64,000 nt of DNA, taken from assembly GCA_016125355.1 (NCBI GenBank), contig WGLX01000006.1, positions 109,047-173,046 of the forward strand. Direction: 5' to 3'. The translations under genes and the position numbers were made by a program. The notes beneath the pieces were generated by a model. It saw only the letters and a list, made by a program, of their open reading frames with translations, did no database searches and was not told the DNA's origin. Below, piece after piece: positions 24,020-53,727 of the stretch (within the stretch, counting starts at the first letter, position 1; every line of letters starts with the position of its first letter). The DNA comes from Actinomycetales bacterium (lineage in GTDB: Bacteria; Actinomycetota; Actinomycetes; S36-B12).

Positions 24020-25327
<1,308 letters not shown>

Positions 25328-25843: not shown

Positions 25844-25847
25844 CCGC

Positions 25848-30630: not shown

Positions 30631-30768
30631 ATGACAAACTCATTGCGGATCTGGTCCACCCCTCAGATCCTCGTCCTGCGCTCGACCGCCTCGGCCGAGT
30701 CCGGCACGCACACCACCATCACCGAGGCGACCGCAACCACGTACAGCTCCCCGTCCGGCGGCCGCTAG
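30631..30768 (+). CDS. lasso-type RiPP precursor peptide A-c (45 aa)
   Basis: C-terminal part of track ORF 30433..30768, starting at the ATG at 30631. MTNSLRIWSTPQILVLRSTASAES|GTHTTITEATATTYSSPSGGR. Core Gly1...Glu8. Confidence 0.75.
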   Translation: MTNSLRIWSTPQILVLRSTASAESGTHTTITEATATTYSSPSGGR

Positions 30769-34994: not shown

Positions 34995-35132
34995 ATGACT
35001 TCGAAGATGCCATGGGGGACCCCCGAGCTGACCCTCCTGCGTTCCGCGGTGGACGCAGAGTCGGGCACGAGGTACTCCGACAGTTCCGAGGGCCAGAGCC
35101 AGTTGACCTTCGTGCCGTCCGGCCAGGCCTAA
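34995..35132 (+). CDS. lasso-type RiPP precursor peptide A-d (45 aa)
   Basis: Not in the ORF track. MTSKMPWGTPELTLLRSAVDAES|GTRYSDSSEGQSQLTFVPSGQA. Core Gly1...Glu9, with Asp6 too close to close a ring. Confidence 0.78.
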   Translation: MTSKMPWGTPELTLLRSAVDAESGTRYSDSSEGQSQLTFVPSGQA

Positions 35133-35147
35133 CGCCGGTCCTCGACC

Positions 35148-35172
35148 GACAGCCGAGGGCCGCTCGGCCGTC
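35148..35172 (+). other. stem-loop between precursor A-d and the downstream kinase-like gene (possible attenuator or RNA-stability element)
   Basis: GACAGCCGAG-ggccg-CTCGGCCGTC, a 10-bp stem with one mismatch. It lies 16 nt after the A-d stop and 35 nt before the ATG at 35207. Confidence 0.35.
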
Positions 35173-35206
35173 CTCATGCAGGGGCGACTGCCGACCCGCT
35201 GATCTC

Positions 35207-36049
35207 ATGACGACGCGTGTGCACTCTCTGCCTGCCCACCTCGGCATCGCTGTCCGCCGCGGCGTCGTACCGACGTCGCTCTCGGGTGGCCGACGCCTCC
35301 CGGGCGGCGTCACTGTCGCCGACGGCACCACCCTGGTGCGGTTTCCCCAAGGTGCCCTCCTCGTCGAGGACGGCACCACAGCCACGGTCGACTGGCCCGG
35401 CGGCAGCGACGTCCCGTCCTGGGTCATCGAGTCTTGGGCCGTGAGCCTGGCCATGGTGCAGCGCGGGAACCTCTGTCTGCACGCGTCCGTGGTTGCCGTG
35501 GGCGACCGGGTCGTCGCCATCGCCGGTGACTCGGGGGCCGGCAAGTCGACCACGGTGCTGGCCCTCGAGGCGCGGGGCCACCGCCTCCTGACCGACGACG
35601 TGGCCATCGTCGACCTGCGACCCGATGGACCGTGGGTGCTGCCGTACCAGCGCAGCGTCCATCTGCTCCCGGACGCGGCGGCCGCGCTCGACGTTGACTT
35701 CGCGGATCTGGCTCCCCTCGCCGACTTCCCCGAAAAGTCCGCCTACCATCCCGCGGCACCGCCGACCGATCCTCTGCCGATCCACGCCGTGGTGCTGCTC
35801 GTGCCGAATGAGGGCATTGAGATGCCCCGCGTGAGGGAACTGCGGGGCGTCGAGAAGGTGCAGTCGACGATGGTCCACGCGGGCCGACCGGTCACGTCTC
35901 CCGCGATCATGGGCGAGGAACGCTACTTCGCGGCCCTGACCGAGCTGGCCGCGCGGACCCCGGTCTACCTCCTCGAGCGGCCGGAAGGCGCGTGGACCCT
36001 CGACGAGGTCTGCACGGCCATCGAGTCGGTGGCCGCCGAGAAACGCTGA
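35207..36049 (+). CDS. HPr-kinase-like protein (candidate RiPP Ser/Thr kinase)
   Basis: ORF 35012..36049 trimmed to the ATG at 35207, giving 280 aa. [46 protein letters not shown] has an intact P-loop. Confidence 0.8.
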   Translation: MTTRVHSLPAHLGIAVRRGVVPTSLSGGRRLPGGVTVADGTTLVRFPQGALLVEDGTTATVDWPGGSDVPSWVIESWAVSLAMVQRGNLCLHASVVAVGDRVVAIAGDSGAGKSTTVLALEARGHRLLTDDVAIVDLRPDGPWVLPYQRSVHLLPDAAAALDVDFADLAPLADFPEKSAYHPAAPPTDPLPIHAVVLLVPNEGIEMPRVRELRGVEKVQSTMVHAGRPVTSPAIMGEERYFAALTELAARTPVYLLERPEGAWTLDEVCTAIESVAAEKR

Positions 36050-36092: not shown

Positions 36093-36233
36093 ATGCGCAC
36101 ACAGAAGCCCTGGGCCGCGCCCGAGGTAGCACTCCTGCGCGCAGCAGGGGACGCCCAAGGCGGTACTTACTCGTGGTCGACGGAGAACTCCGAGACGGCC
36201 ACCGGGTGCGTCGTTCCCTCAGGCAACGTCTGA
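36093..36233 (+). CDS. lasso-type RiPP precursor peptide A-e (46 aa; possible longer form from the ATG at 36057)
   Basis: Not in the ORF track. MRTQKPWAAPEVALLRAAGDAQG|GTYSWSTENSETATGCVVPSGNV. Core Gly1...Glu8. It ends 10 nt from the convergent A-PCP-TE stop. Confidence 0.75.
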   Translation: MRTQKPWAAPEVALLRAAGDAQGGTYSWSTENSETATGCVVPSGNV

Positions 36234-40993: not shown

Positions 40994-42891
40994 CGCCGGT
41001 CCCCACCGCCCTGCTGGTGGTCGACATGCAGGCCGACTACCTCGCGCGGCCCGGCCTTCAGCCGTCTCCCGACCTCCTCGTGGCATCCGTGTCCGAGCTG
41101 CTGGCCGCGTTCCGGTTGGCAGGCGCACCCATCGCCCACGTACGCACGCTCGTGCGCCCGGACGGTTCCGATGCCATGCCGCATTGGCGGGCATCGGGTG
41201 AGCTGGCCTGCATCGCCGGAACGCCGGGGGCACGTCCTCCGGAGATGCTCGTCGAACGTCCGGGCGAACTCATCGCCGCCAAGCAGCACTACCGCGGCTT
41301 CGCCGACCCTCGTCTCGAGCCGTGGCTGCGACAGCGCGGCGTCGAACGCGTCGTGATCGCGGGCCTGTACCTCCACGCGTGCGTGCGCGAGACCGCCCTC
41401 GACGCCTACGAGCGGGGCTTCGCGGTGGTCATTGCCGAGGACGCGGTCGGGATGGCCGATCCCGATCACGGCCGACTCACGCGCGAGTGGCTCGCCGACC
41501 GGGCGGCCGCGTTCCGGTCGACGGCCGACATCCTCGCGGAGCTCCCCCAGGCCACCGCGTTGAGCGGGGACGCCGTCGACGCCGCCATCACCCGGGTCGC
41601 CGCGGCCCAGCCGGACTGGGCGACCGCCGACCCGTCGATGCGGGCTGACGTCCTCGCACGCTGCGCCGACGTTCTCGAGCGTTCCCCGGACGTGGTCCGG
41701 ACGATCGTGGCCGAGGTCGGGAAGCCGGTGGCAGCGGCCCGGGAGGAAGTCTCACGGGCCGTGGGACACCTCCGGACCTCCGCTCGTCTGGCCCGAGAGG
41801 AGGGCCGGGACACGGTGATCGCGGACGGCGTCGAGGTGCGTCGCGTGCCGCTGGGCGTGGTGGCGGCGATCATGCCGTGGAACAACCCGATCGCCCTCCC
41901 CTGCGGCAAGATCGGCCCAGCCCTCGCCCTCGGTAACGGCGTGGTCCTCAAGCCGGCGCCCGAGGCCCAAGGCTGCGCCGAACTCCTTCTGACGATCCTC
42001 CGCTCCGCCGGGCTTCCCGAGGGGCTTGTGGAGGTGGTCCCCGGAGGCGCCACGGTGGGCGCTGCCGTCGCAGCACATCCCGGAATCGACGCCGTCACCC
42101 TGACCGGGTCGATCGCCGCGGGCCGAGCCGTCGCCGACATCTGCGGCCGCCGAGCAGTCCCGCTGCAGGCGGAACTGGGGGGCAACAATGCAGCGGTCGT
42201 CCTGGCCGATGCCGATCTCACCCGTGATGTACCCGACCTGCTGCGCAATGCGTTCGCGTTCGCGGGACAACGGTGCACCGCGGTGCGTCGATTCGTCGTG
42301 CTCGAGGAGGGCCTCAGGGAGTTCGAGGACGCCGTCATCCGCCTCCTGGATGGCGTGCGCGTCGGCGATCCCGCTGACGAGGGCGTCCTAGCCGGGCCCA
42401 TGATCACGCCCGAAGCGCGGACCCGGGTCGAGGACGCGGTGGCGGAGGCGGTCGCCGCGGGGGCGCAGGTCGTCGCGCGAGCAGCCATCGGCCCCGATCA
42501 CGACCCCCGCTACCTGGCTCCCGTCGTGCTGCGGACGGAGGACCCGTCCAGCGCGATCGTCCAGCAGGAGACGTTCGGACCCGTGGCGGTGATCCAGCCG
42601 GCGCGGGACGTCGACGAGGCGATCGCGCTGGCGAACGGAGTCGAACAGGGCCTCGTGCAGTTCGTCTGCACGCGCGACCCGCAGCTCGCACAGGCAGTGA
42701 TGCACCGGGCCGAGGCCGGCATCGTGCAGTGGGGTGGCGGGTCCGTTCCCGTCCATGCCGAGGCGCCCTTCGGCGGCTGGAAGGCCTCGGGGTTCGGACC
42801 GCCCGAGCACGGTCGGTGGGACGCGGAGTTCTACACGCGCCCGCAGGCGGTCTACGCCCCGTCGGACGGCCCACGCGGGTCCGACAGCTAG
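40990..42891 (+). CDS. fusion protein: isochorismatase-family (cysteine hydrolase) domain + aldehyde dehydrogenase domain
   Basis: GTG at 40990 (GTGA overlap), 633 aa. N-terminal domain: ALLVVDMQADY ... VVIAGLYLHACVRETALDA. C-terminal domain: IMPWNNP, ELGGNNA, FAFAGQRCTA and QETFGPV. Confidence 0.8.
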   Translation: MTPVPTALLVVDMQADYLARPGLQPSPDLLVASVSELLAAFRLAGAPIAHVRTLVRPDGSDAMPHWRASGELACIAGTPGARPPEMLVERPGELIAAKQHYRGFADPRLEPWLRQRGVERVVIAGLYLHACVRETALDAYERGFAVVIAEDAVGMADPDHGRLTREWLADRAAAFRSTADILAELPQATALSGDAVDAAITRVAAAQPDWATADPSMRADVLARCADVLERSPDVVRTIVAEVGKPVAAAREEVSRAVGHLRTSARLAREEGRDTVIADGVEVRRVPLGVVAAIMPWNNPIALPCGKIGPALALGNGVVLKPAPEAQGCAELLLTILRSAGLPEGLVEVVPGGATVGAAVAAHPGIDAVTLTGSIAAGRAVADICGRRAVPLQAELGGNNAAVVLADADLTRDVPDLLRNAFAFAGQRCTAVRRFVVLEEGLREFEDAVIRLLDGVRVGDPADEGVLAGPMITPEARTRVEDAVAEAVAAGAQVVARAAIGPDHDPRYLAPVVLRTEDPSSAIVQQETFGPVAVIQPARDVDEAIALANGVEQGLVQFVCTRDPQLAQAVMHRAEAGIVQWGGGSVPVHAEAPFGGWKASGFGPPEHGRWDAEFYTRPQAVYAPSDGPRGSDS

Positions 42892-43337
42892 CCCACCAGG
42901 CCGGAGGCGGCGATCTGCTCGCCCGTGACGGCGCCCGGAACCTCGAACACTCCGGTCGCGGTGAATCCCCGCGCCGCCGGGCCACCCGTCAGTACCCCGG
43001 AAGGCACCATCAGCCAGGCGTGCGCGGCCCAGTCTCCGCCCGTATCCGGACGTCGCAACCCGATCACCACGACCCCGGCGCTGTGCCGGCGCCGCAGCAT
43101 CGCCTGCGCCGCGATCGCCTGGGCCAGGCAGCTGGGCGTCCACGGCAGGTGCCGCGAACCCGACTCGATGGCCGCCTTCACCTGCGTGTCCACCGGCCGT
43201 GGCTGCGTGCGCACCATCCGCTGGACGGCGGTGCCTCGCCACGGCTGTGGCACGGGCACGGACTCGCCGAGCCAACTGGCCCAGTGACGGATCGGCACCC
43301 ACCGCTGCACCGCGGAGCCGACCGTGAGAAGAGCCAT
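42888..43337 (-). CDS. transglutaminase-like lasso leader peptidase (B2 protein)
   Basis: ORF 42888..43703 trimmed to the ATG at 43337, giving 149 aa. TPSCLAQAIAAQAMLRRRHSAGVVVIGLRRPDTGGDWAAHAWLMV carries the Cys...His pattern of lasso B2 proteins. Confidence 0.8.
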   Translation of the reverse strand: MALLTVGSAVQRWVPIRHWASWLGESVPVPQPWRGTAVQRMVRTQPRPVDTQVKAAIESGSRHLPWTPSCLAQAIAAQAMLRRRHSAGVVVIGLRRPDTGGDWAAHAWLMVPSGVLTGGPAARGFTATGVFEVPGAVTGEQIAASGLVG

Positions 43338-43448
43338 CGCCTCCGACGTGCGCGCCCAGCCGGCCACGCGTGCCCGGGGCGATGTCGTCACGAGGCCGAG
43401 TGTAGGCGCGGGCCCCACCGCCGCGCGGCTCTCGGCTACCGTCGACGC

Positions 43449-44576
43449 GTGCCGGTCGACCGCGTCGTGGTGATCACCACGAACCCGGCTGCACTCGCCC
43501 GCCTGGCGGGTCCCCTGTCGCAGGCGGGGCTCAGGATCGTGGACTGGTCGCCTCGGGGCAGCTGCACCGGCTACAGCCGCCACGTCGACGAGCACCACGA
43601 CCTCGCCGATGATCCCGCGGCCCGCGGCAGGCAGCTCGCCGCCATCGCCCGGTCGATCAGTCCCTCGGACTGGGTGGTCCTCGGCACGGATGCCGACATC
43701 CACGACGTGATGGATCGACGGCGAGCAGACTCATCCCTGACCCGACTGCTCCCCACGGCGCGGCACCACAAGACGCTCGGCTCCAAGATCGCCATGGCCG
43801 CCGCGCTCGCCGACCTCGGGGTCGAGCAGCCGGCGTGGACGAGCGCGAGCACGGCCGAGGCCGTGCCGGCCGCCGTCGCCGAACTGGGTGGGGAGGTCGC
43901 GGTGAAGGGTGACCGCGGGTGGGGCGGCCTCGCCGTGACTCGGGTTCCCGCAGGTTCCGCGCCGACCGGTCTCGCGGGGGATGCTCCGTTCCTCGTGCAG
44001 CGTTGGGAGCCGGGAACCCTCGTCTCGATCGACCTGCTCGTCGTACGCGGCGAGGTCGCCCTGGCCCCCTACTCAGTCGTGCTCGGCGAGATCAGGGAGC
44101 GGGGAGCCAGCTACCACCGCGTGTACCTCCCGATTCCCGATGACGGCCTGCGCGAATCCCTGCGGCGCCTGGCCTCAGGGCTGGGCGGGACCTGGTTCGG
44201 CAACGTCTCAGCGATCGCGCGACCGGACGGATCGCACGCCATCATCGAGCTCGACCCACGGCCGAATGCCTGGCATGCCTATCTGGGACGACTCGGGTAC
44301 CCGCTCGTGGCCGCACTCCGGTCGGTGGCGACCGGCACCGATGTCCCCGCGGAGGCCGCCTTGCCCCGCTCCGGCCGGCCCGTCGTCAACCTCACCCGAG
44401 TCGTCCAGGGGAGCCTTGCCGGGAACTCGGTGCGTGCGCGCGCCCTCTTCTATCCCCGGGCGACATGGCGCCATGTGCACCGGGGGGACCTGGCGCTGAC
44501 CTACCGCGAGGCCAGGGACCTCGCGAGGTGGGTTGTCCTGACGCGGGCCGGGCGTCGACGGGTCGAGGACACCTGA
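43449..44576 (+). CDS. ATP-grasp domain protein
   Basis: C-terminal ~375 aa of ORF 42729..44576, with a provisional GTG start at 43449. KTLGSKIAMAAALADLGVEQPAW...GGEVAVKGDRGWGGLAV...FLVQRWEPGTLVSIDLLVVRGEV follows the ATP-grasp pattern. Confidence 0.6.
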   Translation: MPVDRVVVITTNPAALARLAGPLSQAGLRIVDWSPRGSCTGYSRHVDEHHDLADDPAARGRQLAAIARSISPSDWVVLGTDADIHDVMDRRRADSSLTRLLPTARHHKTLGSKIAMAAALADLGVEQPAWTSASTAEAVPAAVAELGGEVAVKGDRGWGGLAVTRVPAGSAPTGLAGDAPFLVQRWEPGTLVSIDLLVVRGEVALAPYSVVLGEIRERGASYHRVYLPIPDDGLRESLRRLASGLGGTWFGNVSAIARPDGSHAIIELDPRPNAWHAYLGRLGYPLVAALRSVATGTDVPAEAALPRSGRPVVNLTRVVQGSLAGNSVRARALFYPRATWRHVHRGDLALTYREARDLARWVVLTRAGRRRVEDT

Positions 44577-44601
44577 TGGTCTGCGCCGAGCGGCGGCCGG
44601 G

Positions 44602-44694
44602 CTAGACCTGCGAGATGGCCCGGGCGTCCTCGACGAGGGCGACTTCATCCACGGTCGGCGGCTGCCAGGGCTCGAGGGGGGTGTGCTCCATCAT
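44602..44694 (-). CDS. 30-aa leader-like small peptide (type II, possibly truncated or a decoy)
   Basis: Not in the ORF track. MMEHTPLEPWQPPTVDEVALVEDARA|ISQV. It begins 9 nt after the dioxygenase stop, and has the W-x-x-P-x-V motif and Ala at W+14 like the other seven peptides. Only 4 residues follow the shared register point. Confidence 0.35.
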   Translation of the reverse strand: MMEHTPLEPWQPPTVDEVALVEDARAISQV

Positions 44695-44703
44695 GATGCC
44701 ACC

Positions 44704-45723
44704 CTAGCCGCGAACGGCGTCACGATCGCGGAAGAACATCAGCTCCGGTGTCTGCATCTCCAGGTCACGCACGAATCCCGGGTGCCGCGGTCGCACGGCG
44801 CGGGGGCGCAGCTGGTAGCCGGCGAAGCCCGATGCCTGGATCGGCATGACGAGGAAGAGTCGGTCACGGTTGACCGCATCCGTCCCGGAATGCAGCCCCT
44901 GCGAGTCGCTGACGAACATCGTGCCCGCCGGTCCGGTGATCGTGCGCACCGCACTCCTCGGGAAGGCCGACCACAGGGCGTCGTCGGGCACACCCATATC
45001 GCCGGCGCGCAGGGCACTCGACCCGAGCGACCCCACGCGGTGACTGCCCGAGACGTAGGACATCGGCGCCGCGCCCGCATCGACGTCGGTGAGGTAGACG
45101 TGGACGCGCAGCCCGCCGAGCCCGTCATAGTCCCAGTGGAACTGGCGCGCGCCGCGGCGCCGCTCATCATCCGTCACCTGTGCGCCCGCACATGTCCAGT
45201 ACAGGCTCGGCGGGTGGATGACCGGGCGCGCGGAGAAATGGGCCGCGGCGAGGCGCCGGAGGTCATGATCGGCGATGAGGCCCTGGATGTCGGGCTGGTC
45301 CAGGACGAACGACTCGACCACGTGCACCGCGGCCGTGTGCTCGTCGCGGTCCTGCAGCGTGCCACGCCCCGAGCTGCCGGTTACGGATCGCAGTACCGCT
45401 GGCGCGGTGGCGGCGAACTCCCGGATTCGGGCGACGGCGTCGGCGTCCAGTGCGGGGGGAACGATGGCGATGCCGTCAGCATCGAGCTCGGCGAGAGCCT
45501 GCGCCCATGACGGTTGCAGATCGGCCGCCGTCAACCGAGGAGCCCGCTCCCGCAACGTCGTGACCATGCGCAAGCCCACGCGGCTGGACAGCCCCGCGGT
45601 ACGGCCGTGCAGGGTGCGCGCGACCCGGTAGGTGTTCTCTCTCGTCGGCTGACCGGGCGTCCACGTGACCGCGTCGACGGCGACGTCCCGGGCCGCCTCG
45701 AGATAGCGGCGGACGGTCGGCAT
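44704..45723 (-). CDS. PhyH-family Fe(II)/2-oxoglutarate dioxygenase
   Basis: 339 aa with the facial-triad-like HWDYD ... GLHSG and a double-stranded beta-helix-type sequence. It is divergent from peptides 45796 and 45958. Confidence 0.7.
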   Translation of the reverse strand: MPTVRRYLEAARDVAVDAVTWTPGQPTRENTYRVARTLHGRTAGLSSRVGLRMVTTLRERAPRLTAADLQPSWAQALAELDADGIAIVPPALDADAVARIREFAATAPAVLRSVTGSSGRGTLQDRDEHTAAVHVVESFVLDQPDIQGLIADHDLRRLAAAHFSARPVIHPPSLYWTCAGAQVTDDERRRGARQFHWDYDGLGGLRVHVYLTDVDAGAAPMSYVSGSHRVGSLGSSALRAGDMGVPDDALWSAFPRSAVRTITGPAGTMFVSDSQGLHSGTDAVNRDRLFLVMPIQASGFAGYQLRPRAVRPRHPGFVRDLEMQTPELMFFRDRDAVRG

Positions 45724-45795
45724 GCGGCGACCCTAGCGCCGCGGCGCCCGGCGGCGGGCCTTGATCCCGCCCACCGATGGCCCTACCCTCACCCC

Positions 45796-45912
45796 ATGGC
45801 TGACGACATGAACACGTGGCAGGCCCCCGAGGTCACGCAGATCACCGACGCTGGCGGCGCCACCCCCGACGCCACGGCGAACATCCGCAACGGGACCTCG
45901 CAGCAGGTCTGA
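45796..45912 (+). CDS. type II RiPP precursor-like peptide (38 aa)
   Basis: C-terminal part of track ORF 45514..45912. MADDMNTWQAPEVTQITDAGGATP|DATANIRNGTSQQV. It has the leader motif W-Q-A-P-E-V, and Thr at position -2 as in canonical lasso leaders. Confidence 0.6.
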   Translation: MADDMNTWQAPEVTQITDAGGATPDATANIRNGTSQQV

Positions 45913-45957
45913 CGCGAATCCGCCCCCTCTCGGCGACGCACGCCGTACGCTCTGCGC

Positions 45958-46080
45958 ATGCCAGAGAGCCCTGACGACTGGCAGGCGCCAGAGGTCACAC
46001 CGCTGACCGACCCGGACGGCGCCTCCCAGTATCCGCACGCCCGAATCCGCAACCTCGAGTCCCCCAGCCCGCCGCCCTGA
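45958..46080 (+). CDS. type II RiPP precursor-like peptide (40 aa)
   Basis: Not in the ORF track. MPESPDDWQAPEVTPLTDPDGASQ|YPHARIRNLESPSPPP. It shares WQAPEVT and A-x-I-R-N with the preceding peptide. Confidence 0.6.
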   Translation: MPESPDDWQAPEVTPLTDPDGASQYPHARIRNLESPSPPP

Positions 46081-46097
46081 CCACCGAGATCTCCGAG

Positions 46098-46958
46098 ATG
46101 CCGAACGCCCTGTCCTCGTCGATCGCCTTCCTCGAGGACCGCTGGGGCGTCGAGGTCGTCGTGGGGAACGCGCCACGCGCGCTGGCGAAGCCCACCCGCG
46201 ACGAGGGCTTCATGCAGATGGCACCCGGTGAGTTCCTCGCCCTCATTGACGACCTCGGGCGCATGCACGTGACCACCGACCGCGTCGTCCTCGACCCCGA
46301 CCCGGGCGTCGACCTGGCCGACATGGACTACCTCGTCTACGGCTGGGCACCACGGTGGATCCGGGTCCTGCGCAGCCAGTTCACGCTCCACGCCTCGGCC
46401 GTCCTCCATCGCGGACGGGCTATCGCCGTCATGGGATTCTCGGGCGCCGGCAAGTCCACCACGGTCACGGCACTCGACCGTCGCGGCTACCCGCTGGTCA
46501 TCGACGATGTACTGCCGGTCGACATCGACGGTGAGGTGCCGTCGGTGCACGGCTGGGAACGACCGGTCCACCTGACCGATGAGGCCGCCGCCCACCTCCG
46601 TGTGGATGAGACCGCCCGCGTCGGCACGGGCGAGCTGAGCAAGATCGCCGCCACCGTCCCTTCCGTGGAGGGGTCATGGCCGCTGGCCATCGCGATCGAG
46701 CTGCGACCCGACGAGTCGGCATCGGCCGTTCAGGTCACCCGGCTGACCGCAGCGACCAAGCTCCAGGCGGTGGTGAACCACTCGAACGGGGCAGGCTTCT
46801 CGGCGGCCGACGGCCGAGCCCACGACTTCTTCGCCTGGGCGACCCGCGTGACGCGGGCCATCGATGTCGTCCGGGTGGTCCGACCCACGGAGGGGTGGCA
46901 CCTCGAGGGCGTTGTCGACGCGATCGTGTCCACCATCGAATCAGAAGGGAACCCATGA
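46098..46958 (+). CDS. HPr-kinase-like protein
   Basis: 286 aa. [46 protein letters not shown]. It lies 17 nt after the second type II peptide gene. Confidence 0.8.
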   Translation: MPNALSSSIAFLEDRWGVEVVVGNAPRALAKPTRDEGFMQMAPGEFLALIDDLGRMHVTTDRVVLDPDPGVDLADMDYLVYGWAPRWIRVLRSQFTLHASAVLHRGRAIAVMGFSGAGKSTTVTALDRRGYPLVIDDVLPVDIDGEVPSVHGWERPVHLTDEAAAHLRVDETARVGTGELSKIAATVPSVEGSWPLAIAIELRPDESASAVQVTRLTAATKLQAVVNHSNGAGFSAADGRAHDFFAWATRVTRAIDVVRVVRPTEGWHLEGVVDAIVSTIESEGNP

Positions 46959-47230
46959 CCGACGCGCTCTACCGCCGGGCCCCCGGCGCCGTCGACGCGG
47001 TGGTCGACGGACAGGTGGTCCTGCTCGCCCCGGTGGACTTCAGCTACCAGTCCCTCGACCGGGTCGGCGGCCGGGTCTGGGAGCTCCTCGCCGAGCCGAG
47101 GACCGTGGACGATCTCGTCGGCATGCTGCGATCGCAGTTCGACGTCGACGAGGCCCGCTGCCGCGCCGACCTGCTGCCGTTCCTCGACCGCATGACGTCG
47201 CTCGGCATCCTCGAGCGGGACGCGTCCTAG
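46955..47230 (+). CDS. PqqD-family RiPP recognition element (second copy)
   Basis: ATG at 46955 (ATGA overlap), 91 aa. AVDAVVDGQVVLLAPVDFSYQSLDRVGGRVWELLAEPRTVDDLVGMLRSQFDVDEARCRADLLPFLDRMTSLGIL. Confidence 0.8.
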   Translation: MTDALYRRAPGAVDAVVDGQVVLLAPVDFSYQSLDRVGGRVWELLAEPRTVDDLVGMLRSQFDVDEARCRADLLPFLDRMTSLGILERDAS

Positions 47231-48405
47231 TCGGATTCAGACGGACGGACGAGCACGCGGCGCCGGAACAGGTCCCCCAGCTCACCGCCCATGGCCGCCA
47301 CGGTGCCCGCGAACCCGGTTCCCGGGGGCAGCCGCTCCGGGGGGAACAGGCCGTCCACCACGGCCATGCCGATCGCCGCCGGTGCACCGGCGTACCGACC
47401 GGACTCCCGGTAGATCCCGACGATCTCCCCGAGCGGGATGTCGTCGTCGATCCACGGGCGCCGCACACTGGCATGGGCGTACGTGCTCCGCAGCCGGTCG
47501 AGGTCGACGCTGCCCTCCGGCACGAAGGCACGCCGCCGCTCCTCTGGGATACCGCCCAGCAGGTCGTCCGCGAGGGCGACCGCCTCGCCAATGACCCTCC
47601 TCAGCCGCCAGTGCGCATCCACGGGCAGTCGGACGTCGTCACGTCGCGCGAGACGGACGATGTCCACGATGCTGCGGAGCCGGTTGTAGCGGTCGATGGC
47701 GGCGCTGTAGCAGACCACCGCGAAGGCATCGGGCAGCGACAGCGTTGGGACCTCGGCATCGGCGATCCGCACGCTGGCCGGACGCGCGAGCAGCACCTCC
47801 GCGCCGGGCAGGGGTCGCTCGTGCCAGCCGATCCGCCAGTGCAGGTCGATGGCGCTGTCGGCGCCGACGTACGACCGTTCCCGTCGCACGCGCAGGTAAT
47901 GACCCCACCAGCGCGGCGCATCCGGGATGGCCTCACCGGCCCACCCCGCCGATTCGAGGGCCTCGTGGGCGCGCGGCACGTCCGCCGGCCGCACGAGGAT
48001 GTCGATGTCGCCGAACCCGCGGGCGGCGAGTCCGCCGGTGGTCTGCAGGCTCAGGGCGATGCCCTTGTAGACCAGTGCTGGGACGTCGGCGTCGGCAAGG
48101 ACCTGCAGCGCACGACTCGTCTCCACGGACAGGCGCAGCGCCCGGACGGCATCCCCGCGGGCGCGGGCGCGGAGCGCGCTCGCGATGGGGTCGGGCGCGG
48201 CCAGGGCCGTCAACTGCGAGGTGAGCAGCGGGGCGACGCGGTGCAGGGTCACGGCGTGCAGCAATCCGCTGGGGTGCACGGCACTCCAGTCGACGGACGG
48301 GACGCCGTCCAGGCGACTTCCGCCGGCGACTTCGGCGGCTAGGGCCACCCGGCAGGCGCGCTGGACCTGGGCGACGTCCCCGGCGTCGATGATGGGATCG
48401 GTCAC
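47227..48405 (-). CDS. uncharacterised nucleotidyltransferase-family protein (PF14907-like)
   Basis: 392 aa. LVYKGIALSLQTTGGLAARGFGDIDILVRPADVPRAHEALESAGW is the typical signature of this family, which commonly neighbours PqqD/HprK-like genes. Confidence 0.7.
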   Translation of the reverse strand: MTDPIIDAGDVAQVQRACRVALAAEVAGGSRLDGVPSVDWSAVHPSGLLHAVTLHRVAPLLTSQLTALAAPDPIASALRARARGDAVRALRLSVETSRALQVLADADVPALVYKGIALSLQTTGGLAARGFGDIDILVRPADVPRAHEALESAGWAGEAIPDAPRWWGHYLRVRRERSYVGADSAIDLHWRIGWHERPLPGAEVLLARPASVRIADAEVPTLSLPDAFAVVCYSAAIDRYNRLRSIVDIVRLARRDDVRLPVDAHWRLRRVIGEAVALADDLLGGIPEERRRAFVPEGSVDLDRLRSTYAHASVRRPWIDDDIPLGEIVGIYRESGRYAGAPAAIGMAVVDGLFPPERLPPGTGFAGTVAAMGGELGDLFRRRVLVRPSESD

Positions 48406-48423: not shown

Positions 48424-48777
48424 TCAGCGCGGCGAGCCCGCGGCCTCCCACGCCTTGCGCACATCGGGCGCGACGCGACCACGTTCGGTGACCGGCATCC
48501 CGACCGACCGCGCCCAGGCGCGGATGATCGCGGCCTCCGTCGGACCCTTGCTGCGGCTGCGCGACGGAGTCGAGGAGCGGGCGCGACGCGAGCCGGCGAC
48601 GACCGGGCCACCGACCTGGCGGGCCGCGCGAAGGTACGGCTTGAGGGCGGCCTTGAGCTCGGCGTACGAGGCGTCCGTCAGGTCGATCTCGTAGTCGACG
48701 CCGTCGACGCGGAACGTGCGCGTCTTGGCCCCCGTGTCGCCGGTGAGGTCATCGATGATCAGCGTCTTCTTGGCCAT
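48424..48777 (-). CDS. lsr2: Lsr2-family nucleoid-associated protein
   Basis: ORF 48424..49029 trimmed to the ATG at 48777, giving 117 aa. Lsr2 dimerisation N-terminus MAKKTLIIDDLTGDTGAKTRTFRVDGVDYEIDLTDASYAELKAALKPYL. C-terminal DNA-binding domain IRAWARSVGMPVTERGRVAPDVRKAWEAA (RGR clamp). Confidence 0.85.
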   Translation of the reverse strand: MAKKTLIIDDLTGDTGAKTRTFRVDGVDYEIDLTDASYAELKAALKPYLRAARQVGGPVVAGSRRARSSTPSRSRSKGPTEAAIIRAWARSVGMPVTERGRVAPDVRKAWEAAGSPR

Positions 48778-48784
48778 GCGCTGA

Positions 48785-49687
48785 TCATGCCGGATCCGGT
48801 GCGCTCCCACCCCGTCTGTGGCGGAGCCGGTGACCAGTCTGCTTGGCGCGTTCGATGAGCGGGTCCTGCACCATCGGTGGCACCGACGGCGCCACGCCTG
48901 CGCGGTGGGCCGCTCGCCAGGAGTCGGCGATTGACTGCGAGCGCACCAGGTCGCGCGCCCGCGCCGGCACCTGCTCCCACACCGAAGGATGGGCCGACGC
49001 CACGAGGGAGAGGTCGAGCAGCCAGCCATCGGTGCCCGGCGCCCCGCGCGAGGCGAGGATCCGAGCCGCCTCCCAGTCGGCCCTCATCACGACCAGGCTG
49101 CCACCTTCTCGGGACACCTCCGCCCTGCCCGGTACCAGCGCTCGACGGAGCGATCCGCTCTCCCAGTGCGTCCAGCCCCTCACCAGCCGGACGGTCGTCG
49201 CCTCGCTCGACGCGGCCACGGCGATGCCCTCATCCCGCCACGCCGCACGTGGGATTGCGGTCGCGAGCGCGTCCACCAGGTCGTCGCGGCTCTTTGCCGG
49301 GTCGACCCAGATCCGCACGGCACTGACGGGCACGGTGCCCGCGTCGGCCTCGTAGGTCACGGCGAGCGTCAGCTCACCGGTGACCGCGTGGTCGATGCCC
49401 CCGGACGACAGCAGCGCGCTCACCTCCGACCCCCGCCGGACCGCGAGTTCGGTGGCGTAGTGGTTGCGCCGCCTCAGGCCCTGAACCCGGGCATGCCACG
49501 GCGAGTCCTCCCGCAGCTCGGCCTGGAGCATCGTCAGGCCCCGCCAGCACACGAGCGGCGTCGTGTCGGGATCCAACGACGCCAGCACCGCGGCGATCCG
49601 ATCCCGCAGGTCCGCTGGCCGGCTCTCCACCGGCATCGCCGCCCACGCGATGATCGGCCACCACGACGGGGATCGCTCCGCCGTCAC
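48785..49687 (-). CDS. hypothetical protein
   Basis: 300-aa ORF with good coding bias, overlapping the upstream gene's stop (49684) by 4 nt and ending 7 nt before lsr2. No motif recognised. Confidence 0.5.
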   Translation of the reverse strand: MTAERSPSWWPIIAWAAMPVESRPADLRDRIAAVLASLDPDTTPLVCWRGLTMLQAELREDSPWHARVQGLRRRNHYATELAVRRGSEVSALLSSGGIDHAVTGELTLAVTYEADAGTVPVSAVRIWVDPAKSRDDLVDALATAIPRAAWRDEGIAVAASSEATTVRLVRGWTHWESGSLRRALVPGRAEVSREGGSLVVMRADWEAARILASRGAPGTDGWLLDLSLVASAHPSVWEQVPARARDLVRSQSIADSWRAAHRAGVAPSVPPMVQDPLIERAKQTGHRLRHRRGGSAPDPA

Positions 49688-52095
49688 TGCGACCGGTTCC
49701 GCTGCCGGGCTCGCGCGACCACCTGGAGGTAGTCCAAGCGGGACTCGCCCATCTCAGCCGTCATGTTGCGGCCATGCGCCCGTCGCAGGAGCACCACGTC
49801 GTCGACGGCCCGCTCCGCGATCCCCAGGGCGCGGGCCCGCTCCACCCAGTCGATGCCCTCCCCGACGCGCAGGTCCTCCTCGAAAGGCCCGACCACCTTG
49901 AAGGCCCGACGCGTCACGAGCAGTGCCCCCGGCAGCGGGACCGGCGGCGACGGATCGACGGGCCATGGTTGGTCCTCGTCCGGAACCTCGGCACCGGCGA
50001 ACCGCACCTGGCGGCCGTACGCGATGCCGCGCTCGATCCCGTCCAAGGCTTCGATGAGCGCCCGGCTGCGTCCGCGGGGCCAGGCGTCGTCCGCGTCGAG
50101 GAAGGCCACCCACGCAGCGGACCCGACGGCGACTCCGGAGTTCCGGGCCGCCCCGGCGCCCCGCCGCTCCCCATGCTCGACGATCCGGACGCGATCGATG
50201 TGCCCGGAGGGCACGTGGGCGACAAGGTCCTCGTCCAGGCCGTCGTTCACGAGGATGACCTGAACGTCCACACCCTCCTGCGCCAGGGCGGACTCGACCG
50301 CGGTGCGGAGATAGGCGGTCTCGCCGCCGACCGGGATGACGACGTCCAGCCTCGGCCGGGCCTGCGACCCCACGCGAGCGTGGTGGGCGCGCACGATGGC
50401 GAGCAGCCTGCTGGCCATGCCGACCGATGTCTTGGACTGGTTCGCATCGTGCATCTGCCGCACGAGCACGACGTCGTCGACCTCGCAGCAGGGCTGCCCG
50501 GAGTCGCGCAGGCGCATGAGCCAGTCGACGTCGTCGGTACCGGAGCCGTCGTCCTCGTCGAAAGGCCCCACGTCGGTGAACAGGGCTCGCGAGAACAGCC
50601 CGGCACCGACCACGCGACCCGGGTGGGAGCCCTCGAACCACTCACGGCGCATCCATGCCTGTGCGCTCTCGGGCACGATCGCGACGAACTCCATGCGCCC
50701 GAAGGCAGCGGCGGCGCGCTCCCGTCGCACAGCCGCAAGGAGCACCTCGACGTGGTCGACTGACCACAGGTCGTCCTGGTCCACGAAGGCGATGAACTCC
50801 GACGTCGCGGCCGCGATGCCGCTGTTGCGAGCCGCAGCAACCCCGCGGTTCCCGTCGTGCTCGACGATGCGCAGGTCGTGACCGCGCTTCCGGGCCTCGT
50901 CGACCAGCCCGTGAAGGACCTCGCGGGAGTCATCAGTGGACCCATCGTCGACGGCGACGATCTCGAGGCGACCGGAGGTCTGCTGCAGGACGGCTGCGAT
51001 CGTGCGGGCGAGGAAGCGCGCCCCGTTGTAGACCGGCAGGATCACGCTGACTCGGGGGCGCACGTCGTCGACGATCTCGCCCAGGTCGCGCAGGGTGTCG
51101 TCCAGGCTCTGCCGACGCGGCAGCACCCGGGCCGGCAGCTCGCTGCACGCCTGCCCGAACCGGGAGAGAACGGCGGCGCGGTCGAACGGCAGCGGCATGA
51201 CGGTGTTGGGAGCCCCCACCCGCCGGGCAGCCGCCGGATCGATCGTGGCCCACGGACGATCGGCCGGTGCCCAGGGATCGAGGGCCAGCAGTCCGTCGAT
51301 CCGCATGCTCGGGGTGAGCAGCCGATCGTCCGTAGCCGTCAGCAGGTGCGCCCGCTTGTGCCCGTGGATGTCCCACGTGACGACGTCCGGTCCCGCGGGA
51401 GCCTCCTGTCCCGGCTGCAGCTTCGTCTTGACCGCCGCGTAGACGGCGTACGCGGCCCACCCCCGCGCATCGGGCCGAACGAGGACGGCGTCGTCCCCGC
51501 AGGTGACCCACCCGTGGTTCAGCGCGGCGAGCGTCGTCGTCGACTTGCCGTATCCCGCATCGCCGAGGAGCAGCAGGCCACGGGGCTCCTCGCCGTGCCC
51601 CCCGCGCCCGACGGTGGCGGCGTGGGCGAGGAAGCCGCCCGAGGCGGCGGCCGTCCAGTGCACGAGGAAGCGGAGGGGGCTGACCTGGTCGTACCCGCTC
51701 GGCTCGGCGGCGGTGAGGAGCACGGCCTGGCCGGTCGCCGGGTCCCATCCGAGCACATGGCCCGCAGCCTCCTGCCAGACGAGACGCACGTCCGTCTCCT
51801 CGAGCCCGACGACCTCACCGCGCGGGCCCAGGTCCCCACGGCGCAGCGGCGGTGGGGACACGGATGAGGGCAGGTCGGCGAACGAGGCGGACACCAGGGA
51901 GACGTCCGGGTCGGAGCCCTGCCACGGACGCGCCCACGCGCGGTCGAAGGAAGAGAACCACTCCGGTCGCGCCGTCGCGTGCGCCATCGTGACCGGCCCC
52001 CACTGGGCGCCCGACAATGGGCGGGACACCGGTCGCAGGGCCTCATGGACCTCGTCGATCCAGGCGGCCACCAGCGTCGAGACGTCGGCAACCAT
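49684..52095 (-). CDS. tri-domain protein: HPr-kinase-like domain + two family-2 glycosyltransferase domains
   Basis: 803 aa. N-terminal LLLLGDAGYGKSTTTLAALNHGWVTCGDDAVLV. GT2 number 1: VSVILPVYNGARFLARTIAAVLQQ...VAVDDGSTDDS...FVDQDDLW. GT2 number 2: LDVVIPVGGETAYLRTAVESALAQ...ILVNDG...FLDADDAW. Confidence 0.85.
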   Translation of the reverse strand: MVADVSTLVAAWIDEVHEALRPVSRPLSGAQWGPVTMAHATARPEWFSSFDRAWARPWQGSDPDVSLVSASFADLPSSVSPPPLRRGDLGPRGEVVGLEETDVRLVWQEAAGHVLGWDPATGQAVLLTAAEPSGYDQVSPLRFLVHWTAAASGGFLAHAATVGRGGHGEEPRGLLLLGDAGYGKSTTTLAALNHGWVTCGDDAVLVRPDARGWAAYAVYAAVKTKLQPGQEAPAGPDVVTWDIHGHKRAHLLTATDDRLLTPSMRIDGLLALDPWAPADRPWATIDPAAARRVGAPNTVMPLPFDRAAVLSRFGQACSELPARVLPRRQSLDDTLRDLGEIVDDVRPRVSVILPVYNGARFLARTIAAVLQQTSGRLEIVAVDDGSTDDSREVLHGLVDEARKRGHDLRIVEHDGNRGVAAARNSGIAAATSEFIAFVDQDDLWSVDHVEVLLAAVRRERAAAAFGRMEFVAIVPESAQAWMRREWFEGSHPGRVVGAGLFSRALFTDVGPFDEDDGSGTDDVDWLMRLRDSGQPCCEVDDVVLVRQMHDANQSKTSVGMASRLLAIVRAHHARVGSQARPRLDVVIPVGGETAYLRTAVESALAQEGVDVQVILVNDGLDEDLVAHVPSGHIDRVRIVEHGERRGAGAARNSGVAVGSAAWVAFLDADDAWPRGRSRALIEALDGIERGIAYGRQVRFAGAEVPDEDQPWPVDPSPPVPLPGALLVTRRAFKVVGPFEEDLRVGEGIDWVERARALGIAERAVDDVVLLRRAHGRNMTAEMGESRLDYLQVVARARQRNRSQ

Positions 52096-52106
52096 GGCCG
52101 GTCCGG

Positions 52107-52514
52107 CTACGAGGCGTCCGGGCGCACCGGCCAGCCCACGGCTTCATCCACGTCGTGGATCGGGTCCAGGCCGAGGAGGTCAGCCATGTCGGTGTGCTCG
52201 GAGATCGCCAGGTCGGCGGCCGTCCAGGCCTCCGCGTCGACGGGCGCCGGCTTCGCCATCGTCGCCTCGCGCACGAGGCCGGCCTCCTGCAGCGACGTCA
52301 CGTACTGTGCCAGCGCGGCCTCGCGGTCGTCTTCGCCGGACAGCAGGGCTCGTCCGGGCACTCCGGCGGTGACGGCGCGCCACACCCACAGGCTCTCGGG
52401 AGGCACGACGTAGTAGGCACCGGTGTTCAGATTGATGGCAAGCGTCTCTCCCCCGACCTCGTCGCTGATGACCGAGGGCGAGTCGAGTTCGAAGGGCTTG
52501 TCGAGGATCGACAT
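52107..52514 (-). CDS. PqqD-like protein with a C-terminal extension (third RRE candidate)
   Basis: 135 aa. VISDEVGGETLAINLNTGAYYVVPPESLWVWRAVTAG follows the PqqD beta-strand/helix pattern. It is first in the operon with the HprK-GT2-GT2 gene. Confidence 0.6.
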   Translation of the reverse strand: MSILDKPFELDSPSVISDEVGGETLAINLNTGAYYVVPPESLWVWRAVTAGVPGRALLSGEDDREAALAQYVTSLQEAGLVREATMAKPAPVDAEAWTAADLAISEHTDMADLLGLDPIHDVDEAVGWPVRPDAS

Positions 52515-52554
52515 GCAGGCTCCCTGAGCGCCGAGGACAGTTGGTCGATGCTAC

Positions 52555-53727
52555 TCAGGAGGGTCGATGCCGGTGCGCGGCGAGGGACAGCGTGGACCGG
52601 ACCGCATCGACGAACTCCGCGCGCCCGTAGACATCGCGCGCCGCCGACGCCACTCGCGCTGACGCGGTCCCCCACCGGGCATCGTCCCGGATCAGTCGGA
52701 GGGCCTCCGCGGCGAACTCCTCCGCCTCGTCGGCGATGGCCAGACCGTCCTGCCAGCCGCGGCCGTCGCGAACCAGGACGCCTTCCTGCCCCTCGTGGGT
52801 CGTGACGACCGGAAGCCCCAGAGCCATGGCGGCGACGAGCTTGCGCCGGGCACCGGAGCCGAACCGCAGCGGCGCCACCAGCGCCACGGAGCGGTGGTGC
52901 AGTGCGATCAGTTCGGACTCCGAGACACGGCCGGCGAAGCGCAGCCCGGGCCGCTCGAGGGTGCGGACCAGCTCGGCCGGCCACTCTCCGACGACGGTCA
53001 CCTCCAGGGAGGCGTCCTTCCGGAGCAGCTCCGGGAGGATCGCCGCCGCCAGCCACTCCACCGCATCTCGGTTGGGCGCGTGGGCTGCTCCCCCGACCAT
53101 GAGCAGGCCGCGGCGGCCGGACCGAGGCGGGATCTCGCCTGGGAGCTCGGGGCCGTCGAGGAGGTAGTAGGGAATCCCCACCGCCCGCGCTCCGGGCAGC
53201 GCCGCGTCGACTGCGGTCGCCTCGTGCTCCGTCGGGTAGACGGTCAGGTCGAAGGCCGACCAGCACCGTCGCTCCGCCAACGTGGCCACGCGGGCGTCGC
53301 CTGAGAGCCGCCCGCCCAGGCGGGCCTCGGCGGCGAGGCGCCGCGCGTAGATGTCGTGGCCCCAGTAGATGCCGACCACGTCGGGGGCCTCCTCGAGCGC
53401 GGCCGCGGCGATGGCACCGGGTCCGGGGCGATGCGCGATGACCGTGGAGAACTCCCCCGACCGGAGCAACGCGGGCAGCGCCACGGTCCCCGCGCGGTGC
53501 GCCCGGACGCCCATGCGGCGAAGGGCCTCCAGCTCAGCATCGTCCGCCGGACCCTTGACGCCGAGGGGGAGGAACTCCACGTCCCTGCCGAGGTCCAGGA
53601 GCGCGACGAGCAGGTCGTAGGTGGCGCGCGCGCCCGCGCTGGTCCCGGGGTCGAAGGCAGCACCGTCGACGACGAGCACGCGACCCGGACGGGCGTCAGC
53701 AGACAACGGGCGCTCCACGGGAACCAT
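52555..53727 (-). CDS. GT-B (family 4-like) glycosyltransferase
   Basis: 390 aa. LLMVGGAAHAPNRDAVEWL...LRFAGRVSESELIALHHRSVALVAPLRFGSGARRKLVAAMALGLPVVTTHEG. Confidence 0.75.
   Translation of the reverse strand: MVPVERPLSADARPGRVLVVDGAAFDPGTSAGARATYDLLVALLDLGRDVEFLPLGVKGPADDAELEALRRMGVRAHRAGTVALPALLRSGEFSTVIAHRPGPGAIAAAALEEAPDVVGIYWGHDIYARRLAAEARLGGRLSGDARVATLAERRCWSAFDLTVYPTEHEATAVDAALPGARAVGIPYYLLDGPELPGEIPPRSGRRGLLMVGGAAHAPNRDAVEWLAAAILPELLRKDASLEVTVVGEWPAELVRTLERPGLRFAGRVSESELIALHHRSVALVAPLRFGSGARRKLVAAMALGLPVVTTHEGQEGVLVRDGRGWQDGLAIADEAEEFAAEALRLIRDDARWGTASARVASAARDVYGRAEFVDAVRSTLSLAAHRHRPS

Follow-up and report, generated by a model that had tools for sequence, protein, structure and literature searches.

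Two short open reading frames beside an actinobacterial lasso cluster as probable precursors of a conserved family of linear modified peptides

Two short open reading frames (ORFs) lying near an actinobacterial lasso cluster raise the question of whether they encode peptides at all and, if so, whether these peptides belong to the lasso system or to a family of their own. They are found in a 64,000-nucleotide stretch of an Actinomycetales bacterium (assembly GCA_016125355.1, contig WGLX01000006.1, forward-strand positions 109,047 to 173,046), hereafter the window, which derives from an uncultured actinobacterium and has a GC content of ~70–74%. An earlier interpretation of the letters alone, hereafter the sequence-only reading, had described the two products, here peptides A and B, as carrying a W-x-x-P-x-V leader motif and a shared I-R-N, and as being followed directly by an HprK-like gene and a PqqD gene. 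Both peptides were read directly from the window with the sequences and motifs described, and the two genes are indeed in place, the HprK-like gene starting 18 nt 3′ of peptide B and its stop codon overlapping the PqqD start in an ATGA junction, by which the two are translationally coupled. On the other side, the gene of a PhyH-type oxygenase and peptide A are divergent, with a gap of 72 bp between them. These features are listed below, with sizes in amino acids (aa), GC3 for the GC content at third codon positions, and RRE for the recognition element of RiPPs (peptides that are made on the ribosome and modified after translation).

45796..45912, forward strand: type-1 precursor peptide A, 38 aa, MADDMNTWQAPEVTQITDAGGATPDATANIRNGTSQQV; reading frame and ATG taken straight from the sequence, GC3 0.92
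45958..46080, forward strand: type-1 precursor peptide B, 40 aa, MPESPDDWQAPEVTPLTDPDGASQYPHARIRNLESPSPPP; GC3 0.83, same register as A
44704..45723, reverse strand: PhyH-type Fe(II)/2-oxoglutarate (2OG) oxygenase, 339 aa; assigned from a structure model and from homologues above the PF05721 cut-off
46098..46958, forward strand: HprK-like P-loop kinase, 286 aa; weak PF07475 and TIGR04352/04355 matches over the Walker-A region
46955..47230, forward strand: discrete RRE/PqqD-family chaperone, 91 aa; PF05402 at 9e-16
47227..48405, reverse strand: NTP_transf_5 nucleotidyltransferase, 392 aa; PF14907 at 2e-36, adjoining the kinase in most related loci

With moderate confidence, peptides A and B are probably translated, as precursors within a conserved family of linear actinobacterial peptides whose modification depends on an RRE (hereafter the type-1 family). 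The family is real, conserved and uncharacterised, and the doubt lies almost wholly in its chemistry.

Translation and conservation of the small ORFs

Real genes were told from spurious GC-rich ORFs by third-position GC together with Pfam and NCBIfam matches, and the GC3 values of peptides A and B are those usual for coding sequence in this genome. The sequence-only reading had conceded that its peptides would be in doubt if an overlapping ORF of 132 aa (45514..45912) were a real protein, and this came out in favour of the peptides. The longer ORF is an artefact, its upstream 94 codons being antisense to the 339-aa oxygenase gene; moreover, its upstream part has a GC content of 0.88 at first codon positions (GC1) and a GC3 of 0.71, GC3 rises to 0.92 once the ATG of peptide A is reached, as in a frame switch at that ATG, and many peptide homologues have an in-frame stop 1–3 codons ahead of Met.

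The related loci were gathered from the contigs of homologues, from a one-genome-per-species scan and from a JGI metagenome scan. Homologue searches returned 119 matches to the HprK-like protein, which is itself 100% identical to GC156_03785 of an Actinomycetales bacterium metagenome-assembled genome (MAG), and 50 to the 339-aa protein, nearly all of them in metagenomes or MAGs; the named sources of relatives are Candidatus Nanopelagicales and other Actinomycetota MAGs. A loose leader pattern with a length limit, run over the gathered loci, yielded 56 unique short peptides, and in 51 of these, A and B included, [R/V]-N stands at a fixed distance from the leader Trp. The 51 come from ~19 non-redundant loci, counting the window, in actinobacterial metagenomes and MAGs, with 1–8 type-1 copies per locus (L010 and L024 being cited for copy number); thus, homologous small ORFs beside HprK-like/PqqD pairs, for which the sequence-only reading had recommended a search, do exist in other genomes.

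The family motif (n = 51) reads W-x-x-P-x-V-x-x-L-T, a fixed-length spacer, R-N-(G) and a hypervariable tail. Counted from the leader Trp, its positions are occupied as follows.

W+0: Trp in 51/51 (required by the search)
W+3: Pro in 51/51 (required by the search)
W+5: Val in 39/51 (a hydrophobic residue was required by the search)
W+8: Leu in 41/51
W+9: Thr in 48, Ser in 2 and Ala in 1
W+10: Asp, Glu or Gln
W+13: Gly in 36/51
W+23: Arg in 49/51; Val in the distant locus L009
W+24: Asn in 51/51
W+25: Gly in 43/51; Ala, Leu, Thr or Asp in the other 8

Both window peptides have W-Q-A-P-E-V, and in both the Arg and Asn of I-R-N occupy W+23 and W+24; in peptide B the Asn is followed by Leu, a residue also seen at that place among the relatives. 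In the clade of L016–18 and L022 the spacer is one residue shorter and Asn falls at W+23. The 12-residue stretch from T-D to R-N is variable in sequence and constant in length, as would be expected of a spacer that separates a docking site from an active site. The tails that follow have 2–16 residues and are hypervariable, with at least one Ser or Thr in 51/51; when the residues of 38 tails were shuffled, this presence of Ser/Thr had P ~0.001, a value to be read with the fact that the peptides are not phylogenetically independent. An N-glycosylation sequon, N-x-S/T, was considered and rejected, as it matches peptide A and fails for peptide B and most relatives. A Pro-Ser or Pro-x-Ser kinase motif in common with the PSG of the lasso cores was likewise discarded, showing no enrichment over within-tail shuffles.

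In codon-level comparisons of the conserved part, within and between loci, the ratio of non-synonymous to synonymous substitution (dN/dS) is 0.08–0.48 and, therefore, these are genuine, selected coding sequences. That the small ORFs might instead be untranslated chance ORFs in GC-rich intergenic DNA is hardly credible. It would fit the lack of a clear Shine-Dalgarno sequence or promoter, and also the database record, in which peptide A and a second kind of small peptide (type 2, described below) are called as genes only in Logan assemblies, unnamed and with no NCBI record, and peptide B was not found in the collection holding these calls. Promoter and terminator scans, Rfam and NCBIfam, when run on the peptides, gave nothing, so that neither database has an entry for the family of A and B. 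Nevertheless, the 51 family peptides keep their frame, dN/dS is well under 1, GC3 has a coding signature and homologues of the small ORFs were called as genes by independent pipelines.

Some copies seem to have decayed. In a long-read MAG (L013, 7780..7887), a type-1 ORF shifts frame after the spacer, and in L022 (4994..4899) a second copy has R-D-G in place of R-N-G and lacks a start codon. The locus with seven type-1 precursors (L010, CALQEM020000125.1) is filed as a ‘Bifidobacterium breve’ MAG, and its 64% GC and near-identity to freshwater metagenome contigs (L024, L025) suggest that it was mis-binned.

The conserved enzymes and their predicted chemistry

Gene presence and absence were scored by tblastn of the window proteins against all loci and from precomputed Pfam gene lists. 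In nearly all loci, the core set beside the peptides consists of the PhyH-type oxygenase, the HprK-like kinase and the PqqD/RRE protein, and in minimal loci (L016–L018) nothing else stands beside the peptides. The NTP_transf_5 gene is present in most loci, being missing only from the L016–18/L022 clade, from L013 and L014, and from the L010/L024/L025 group. No Asn-synthase-type lasso cyclase was detected in any related locus, either by tblastn or in the Pfam gene lists, the window alone having one; no signal-peptidase domain appeared in the Pfam results for the window genes or the related loci, and radical SAM genes were likewise missing from every locus. The idea of a distinct, RRE-dependent, non-lasso family living beside the lasso cluster is supported by this conservation without a cyclase.

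The best solved relatives of the RRE are the lasso RREs TbiB1 (9e-9) and PbaB1 (4e-8), with LppB at 7e-4; it is of the lasso B1 type and is predicted to bind the [Y/W]xxPx[L/V/I] leader motif. The 286-aa protein carries an HPr kinase-type Walker-A motif and an Asp-Asp motif, from which its role as a kinase is predicted: GAGKSTT, (I)DDV, R155 and H158 are invariant among 17 relatives, and the homologues P0030 and P0036 score above the Pfam PF07475 cut-off. It is ~30% identical to two HprK-like paralogues on the lasso side of the window. The pairing of an HprK-related P-loop protein with a PqqD-family protein recalls Haft's HPr-rel-A/SynChlorMet cassettes, uncharacterised systems for peptide modification (TIGR04352, TIGR04355, TIGR04249), from which the type-1 system differs in scoring 31–33 bits against a cut-off of 200 and in having no radical SAM/SPASM partners.

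The sequence-only reading had taken the 339-aa protein for a divergent PhyH dioxygenase, a claim that stands through its homologues and its structure model and not through its own Pfam score. The protein itself is under the PhyH cut-off (E 0.024) and its sequence search against the PDB was empty, whereas its homologues are over the cut-off and its AlphaFold model, built from 43 sequences, reaches a predicted local distance difference test (pLDDT) score of 95.4. The top Foldseek matches of the model (E ~1e-10) are proline hydroxylase H11, EctD, AviO1, SnoN/K and GriE, of the PhyH clan, and of the HxD...H...R pattern, H196-x-D198 and R288 are invariant and H278 nearly so. Judged by the model, it is a double-stranded beta-helix Fe(II)/2OG hydroxylase fold that has an iron triad and an Arg for binding 2OG. 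When 1.84 billion representatives were searched with a profile, the protein fell into a wider family of 845 clusters at E ≤ 1e-30, ~10 of them above 320 bits, whose members are fused to TPR, methyltransferase or GSCFA domains. A 716-aa protein of the representative library, P0176, is a natural fusion of NTP_transf_5 and a PhyH oxygenase of the same subfamily (E 8e-115) and, therefore, the oxygenase and the nucleotidyltransferase are functionally linked. Residues 1–83 of the window oxygenase (45475..45723) form a conserved N-terminal four-helix extension of ~80 aa that is missing from the matched structures. Many of the top-scoring relatives in the 845 clusters retain this extension, which might serve to bind the peptide or a partner protein.

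In the pathway proposed for the type-1 family, the RRE would bind the WxxPxV leader, as lasso and linear polyphosphorylated peptide (LPP) RREs do, and present the peptide to the enzymes. The oxygenase would most likely hydroxylate Asn W+24 or the neighbouring Arg, a site inferred from the pairing of a family-unique enzyme with a family-unique invariant motif. The HprK-like kinase would then phosphorylate a hydroxyl, which could be that of a tail Ser/Thr, as with LppK and PadeK, or the newly made one. Sugars may then be attached to the phosphate by NTP_transf_5 and by glycosyltransferases encoded nearby, for which pseudomycoicidin offers a parallel. Where a lasso-type B2 peptidase is present, it would remove the leader, plausibly after the near-invariant Thr W+9 (after Thr W+9-x), and the product would stay linear.

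A stricter version of this chemistry can be considered tentatively, although it is unlikely to be correct: beta-hydroxy-Asn or hydroxy-Arg would be made first and the new hydroxyl, not a tail Ser/Thr, would be phosphorylated, after which the site could be glycosylated or eliminated, a chemistry for which neither LPPs nor lasso peptides offer an example. In its favour, an oxygenase, a kinase and an RRE are precisely what the smallest conserved set consists of, Arg-Asn is the sole invariant site outside the RRE-binding motif, the position of the tail Ser/Thr is not fixed, and the P0176 fusion ties the oxygenase to a phosphate-extending enzyme. However, Ser is the target of every HprK-like RiPP kinase that has been characterised (PMC13381572, PMC8498205), and in L014 both R-N and the kinase are retained with no oxygenase nearby.

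The invariant Asn also invites the suggestion that R-N-G processes itself, a succinimide leading to deamidation to isoAsp or to cleavage of the tail while the enzymes work on other parts of the peptide. No sequence forms succinimides more readily than Asn-Gly, and Gly follows Asn in 43/51 peptides. Nevertheless, the 8 peptides with Ala, Leu, Thr or Asp after Asn, including B with its Leu, would be far less reactive, and both the invariant Arg and the dedicated oxygenase are left unexplained, which makes self-processing improbable.

Several points weigh against the preferred reading of A and B as precursors of linear, RRE-dependent modified peptides. Every chemical step in it is inferred. L014 has a peptide and a kinase, with neither oxygenase nor PqqD within 8 kb, and L002 has no recognisable PqqD adjoining the kinase. 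As the oxygenase subfamily is part of a much wider family, its substrate need not be the type-1 peptide, and leader removal may not belong to the core pathway, because B2 is absent from most loci. The tail Ser/Thr ranges from N+1 to N+6, so that there is no fixed phospho-site, and the C-terminal residues are diverse; fixed phospho-sites are known elsewhere, namely Ser3 in LPPs and the C-terminal Ser in paeninodin (PMC13381572, PMC8498205). Finally, the Pro-Ser context is not significantly enriched in the tails, and ahead of peptides A and B there is neither an obvious Shine-Dalgarno sequence nor an obvious sigma-70 promoter.

Relation to linear polyphosphorylated and lasso peptides

The closest described parallel is found in Bacillota, where LPPs have been shown experimentally (Popov et al., Nat Commun 2026; PMC13381572). 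LPP clusters combine an RRE, the HprK-like LppK and an NTP transferase without a cyclase, and LppK polyphosphorylates Ser3 of a linear peptide; they often adjoin lasso biosynthetic gene clusters, frequently those of phosphorylated lasso peptides, and glycosyltransferase-rich or capsule loci, their final product was left unidentified by the authors, and LPPs are stated to be restricted to Bacillota (PMC13381572). Type-1 loci resemble them in that a discrete RRE of lasso-like kind is joined by an HprK-like kinase and an NTP transferase while a macrolactam cyclase is missing, in that the short precursors, from one to several per locus, have variable C-termini and a [Y/W]xxPxV leader, and in the presence of two leader types in one cell. 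Likewise, the window module adjoins a lasso cluster, and related loci are often rich in glycosyltransferases. Thus, the sequence-only statement that the chemistry was unknown no longer holds wholly, given this Bacillota precedent (PMC13381572), although the chemistry of the type-1 family itself is still deduced.

The differences are, nevertheless, considerable. LPP clusters use LppS, a peptidase of the SpI/SipW type, whereas type-1 loci have no SpI peptidase, some having a lasso B2 and most none. The LPP motif YxxPxVLxHQxIxFETxxS, cleaved after Thr-1, has only xxPxV in common with the type-1 WxxPxVxxLT(D/E/Q)...RN(G), and LppB is a more distant relative of the type-1 RRE than are TbiB1 and PbaB1 of the lasso systems. 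Moreover, the type-1 family has a near-constant PhyH oxygenase, an optional ATP-grasp with a second peptide, and Actinomycetota hosts. The LPP core includes an MsbA-like exporter; an ABC_tran gene adjoins the type-1 module in L001, and the sole ABC exporter of the window (25848..27632) lies in its lasso part. The type-1 family is probably an actinobacterial cousin of the Bacillota LPPs, and it is not LPP as defined, given the absence of SpI, the other motif, the other phylum and the constant oxygenase. No description of a PhyH, HprK and PqqD system beyond the LPP and lasso papers was found in full-text literature searches.

With the phosphorylated or phosphoglycosylated lasso systems of paeninodin and pseudomycoicidin the type-1 module shares a B1 RRE, in a subset of loci B2, an HprK-like K, an NTP_transf_5-type N and an RRE-bound leader motif (PMC8498205). 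In lasso systems, Ser is phosphorylated by HprK homologues while the precursor is linear, PsmN adds a hexose to the phosphate in pseudomycoicidin, and the Fe/2OG enzyme CanE hydroxylates the C-terminal precursor Asp of canucin A (PMC8498205). CanE, like the type-1 oxygenase, is encoded beside an RRE-dependent precursor, and by analogy it could be a precedent for Asp/Asn-type beta-hydroxylation on a linear peptide; it is, however, an accessory enzyme acting on a C-terminal Asp, whereas the type-1 oxygenase is a core member and its candidate site is the internal Arg-Asn. The C-terminal residue is not Ser in most type-1 members, unlike in phosphorylated lasso peptides. In contrast to lasso peptides, the related type-1 loci have no cyclase, and the type-1 cores have no N-terminal Gly/Ala/Ser/Cys together with Asp/Glu at 7–9; the family thus fails two lasso-defining features, the cyclase and the acceptor residue.

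The assignment of the cores depends on where the leader ends. The sequence-only reading had placed the cut between W+16 and W+17, pointing to an Ala at W+14 (position −3) in all eight peptides of the window, which are the five lasso-type precursors listed next, the 30-aa peptide at 44602..44694, and A and B. The Ala is present in all eight, yet it is lineage-specific, being found in 20/38 relatives, and is not a family feature. In that register neither core has Gly1 or an Asp/Glu at 7–9, as had been described, whereas the cut itself receives no support, since W+15 is variable and the conserved positions are Thr W+9 and Arg-Asn W+23/24. A cut after Thr(W+9)-x would plausibly fit the classical Thr(−2) rule better.

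33351..34940: Asn-synthase-type cyclase of the lasso cluster, ~11 kb from peptides A and B
30250..30378, 30449..30577, 30631..30768, 34995..35132 and 36093..36233: five lasso-type precursors with Gly1 and Glu8 or Glu9

It is very improbable that A and B are atypical lasso precursors cyclised by this cyclase. Their WxxPxV leader is common to the five lasso-type precursors, the cyclase is ~11 kb away, and a cut after W+10 gives peptide A an Ala1 and an Asp7; however, the same cut leaves peptide B starting with Pro, no register puts Asp/Glu at 7–9 across the family (38–51 aligned peptides), and the cyclase is in none of the related loci. The two lasso registers considered, cut after W+16 and after W+10 (Thr at −2), were both rejected, as neither yields a consistent acceptor residue.

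Taken as RRE-dependent linear peptides, A and B extend the concept of a linear, lasso-derived phosphopeptide from Bacillota to Actinomycetota, with another peptidase solution and an extra Fe/2OG oxygenase, and there is a realistic chance that the defining chemistry at Arg-Asn is new. The invariant Arg-Asn is a sharply defined target for mass spectrometry and mutagenesis. Leader discrimination also takes a new form here. In LPP and paeninodin-type lasso systems it follows a rule by which Tyr marks LPP and Trp marks lasso leaders (PMC13381572). This rule cannot operate in the window, because both co-resident families use Trp, and two Trp-type leader families, two verified RREs and a single B2 share one locus. 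At W+8 to W+10, type-1 leaders have L-T-D and lasso-type leaders L-R or L-S.

Glycan genes, B2 and the lasso cluster

Many related loci lie among GT2/GT4 glycosyltransferase, dTDP-sugar, glycerophosphotransferase and Wzt/ABC2 genes, and the window has comparable genes beyond the nucleotidyltransferase.

49684..52095, reverse strand: possible module extension, a HprK-like–GT2–GT2 fusion of 803 aa (Pfam, NCBIfam)
52107..52514, reverse strand: possible RRE, 135 aa, its N-terminus weakly like PqqD (hhalign probability only 45%)
52555..53727, reverse strand: GT4 (Pfam, NCBIfam)

In L014, GT2-GT2, an HprK-like gene, a type-1 peptide and GT4 are separate genes of one block, and 49684..53727 is possibly part of the peptide module. 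The sequence-only reading had counted three PqqD proteins; two are verified in the window, whereas the third candidate, at 52107..52514, was negative in Pfam, tblastn and jackhmmer and reached no more than the hhalign probability given above against PqqD.

This setting raises the thought, still rather unlikely and somewhat more so than phosphorylation confined to the new hydroxyl, that the peptides are not secreted natural products and serve as carriers or primers for glycan building, or as envelope-associated phosphoglycopeptides. It would agree with the embedding of related loci in glycan genes, the HprK-GT2-GT2 fusion and GT4 close by in the window, tails as short as two residues, and the occurrence of LPPs in capsule loci, noted by authors who did not arrive at a final product (PMC13381572). 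Against it, the minimal loci L006 and L009 have no adjacent glycosyltransferases and those nearest to L016–L018 belong to another gene block ~3 kb off, hypervariable tails in multiple copies would be more usual where RiPP products diversify, and an ABC exporter adjoins the module in L001. The family occurs in abundant uncultured freshwater actinobacteria, including the streamlined Nanopelagicales, with up to eight tandem precursors and often in envelope glycan loci; from this setting and abundance it follows that the products may matter for envelope biology or microbial interactions.

Between the lasso cluster and the oxygenase gene lies a further sub-module.

42888..43337, reverse strand: lasso-type B2 cysteine leader peptidase, 149 aa; NF033537 at 1e-14, above cut-off
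43449..44576, forward strand: ATP-grasp ligase, 375 aa, accessory; homologue P0173 above the PF02222 cut-off, and a structure model
44602..44694, reverse strand: type-2 small peptide, 30 aa, MMEHTPLEPWQPPTVDEVALVEDARAISQV; GC3 0.94, relatives beside ATP-grasp and B2

The B2 gene is the sole one in the window by tblastn and jackhmmer, and its product is 34–51% identical to the B2 proteins of the cyclase-less loci L001, L003, L013 and L021. The 375-aa protein has no Pfam match of its own and its sequence search against the PDB was empty; its model (pLDDT 76) resembles RizA, PurK, PylC, BacD and ArgX. Its gene is convergent with that of the type-2 peptide, which lies directly downstream of the 339-aa oxygenase gene, also has W-x-x-P-x-V, and follows the pattern (E/Q)PW-x-x-P-x-V-(D/E/T)-(E/Q)-(V/I)-A-x-(V/T)... 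over ~30 aa, with a Ser near the C-terminus; across the recurring trio described next it reads ...PW-x-x-P-x-V-D/E-E-V-A-x-V-x-D-A... The subset of B2, ATP-grasp and type-2 peptide recurs in L001, L003/4/5, L013 and L021, and B2 is missing elsewhere, including loci with 8–10 kb of flanking sequence. The trio is placed as follows.

Window: 42888..44694
L001: 91..1838
L003: 5225..6450 and 10186..10551
L013: 4763..6414
L021: 9001..10706

Given that four related loci have the trio without a cyclase, the role of the lasso cyclase might be taken over by the ATP-grasp, or the type-2 peptide might act as a free leader. Graspetides are made by ATP-grasp ligases that form side-chain ester or amide rings on precursors in which Thr/Ser/Lys and Asp/Glu motifs are repeated. 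The window protein has an ATP-grasp fold, with L-amino-acid ligases, PurK and PylC as its nearest structures; type-2 peptides have acidic residues and 1–2 Ser, and no Lys or repeated motif. A bolder proposal, as tentative as phosphorylation confined to the new hydroxyl, is a distinct RiPP class, widespread in uncultured Actinomycetota, in which Arg-Asn would be hydroxylated and the new hydroxyl then phosphorylated by the HprK-type kinase and glycosylated, with B2, ATP-grasp and the type-2 peptide making up a second unknown chemistry in which ATP-grasp replaces the cyclase. If true, the hydroxylated and then phosphorylated Arg-Asn would be a modification undescribed in any peptide natural product.

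The remaining parts of the lasso cluster (25.5–39 kb), other than the cyclase and the precursors, are these.

25568..25843: PqqD/RRE
25848..27632: ABC exporter
28417..30198, forward strand: sulfotransferase–HprK-like fusion; Sulfotransfer_1 at 4e-19, weak Hpr_kinase_C
35012..36049: HprK-like gene
30812..33358 and 36244..38862, both reverse strand: two stand-alone adenylation–peptidyl carrier protein (PCP)–thioesterase (A-T-TE) proteins, flanking the lasso cyclase

Between the sulfotransferase–HprK fusion and the HprK-like gene at 35012..36049 the identity is 40%. The lasso-type precursors have Ser/Thr-rich cores and Glu or Gln, not the usual Thr, at position −2, and the A-T-TE pair, which lasso clusters do not usually have, suggests that the peptides are acylated or aminoacylated. 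This part of the window has no B2 of its own. The sequence-only reading had wondered whether the two systems share a leader peptidase; if B2 is shared, the lasso pathway would be the likelier borrower, because B2 homologues lie in cyclase-less loci beside the type-1 system.

A sixth, leader-like WxxPxI ORF (59484..59744, forward strand, ending WQEPEIARLTG...PPSG) is most likely spurious, because a real gene for a 507-aa Big_3_5 surface protein (59261..60784) runs antisense to it. A gene for the xenogeneic silencer Lsr2 lies inside the module, at 48424..48777 (reverse strand) in the window and again at 6907..7281 in L021, a hint that the island may be silenced or may have been acquired horizontally. 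Finally, peptide loci repeatedly adjoin tig-clpP-clpP(-clpX), in the window at 24020..25894 (reverse strand), with ClpX at the left edge of the cluster, and in L016 (3745..6812), L017 (2438..5473) and L022 (532..1923), an adjacency that may reflect conserved synteny or a preferred insertion site.

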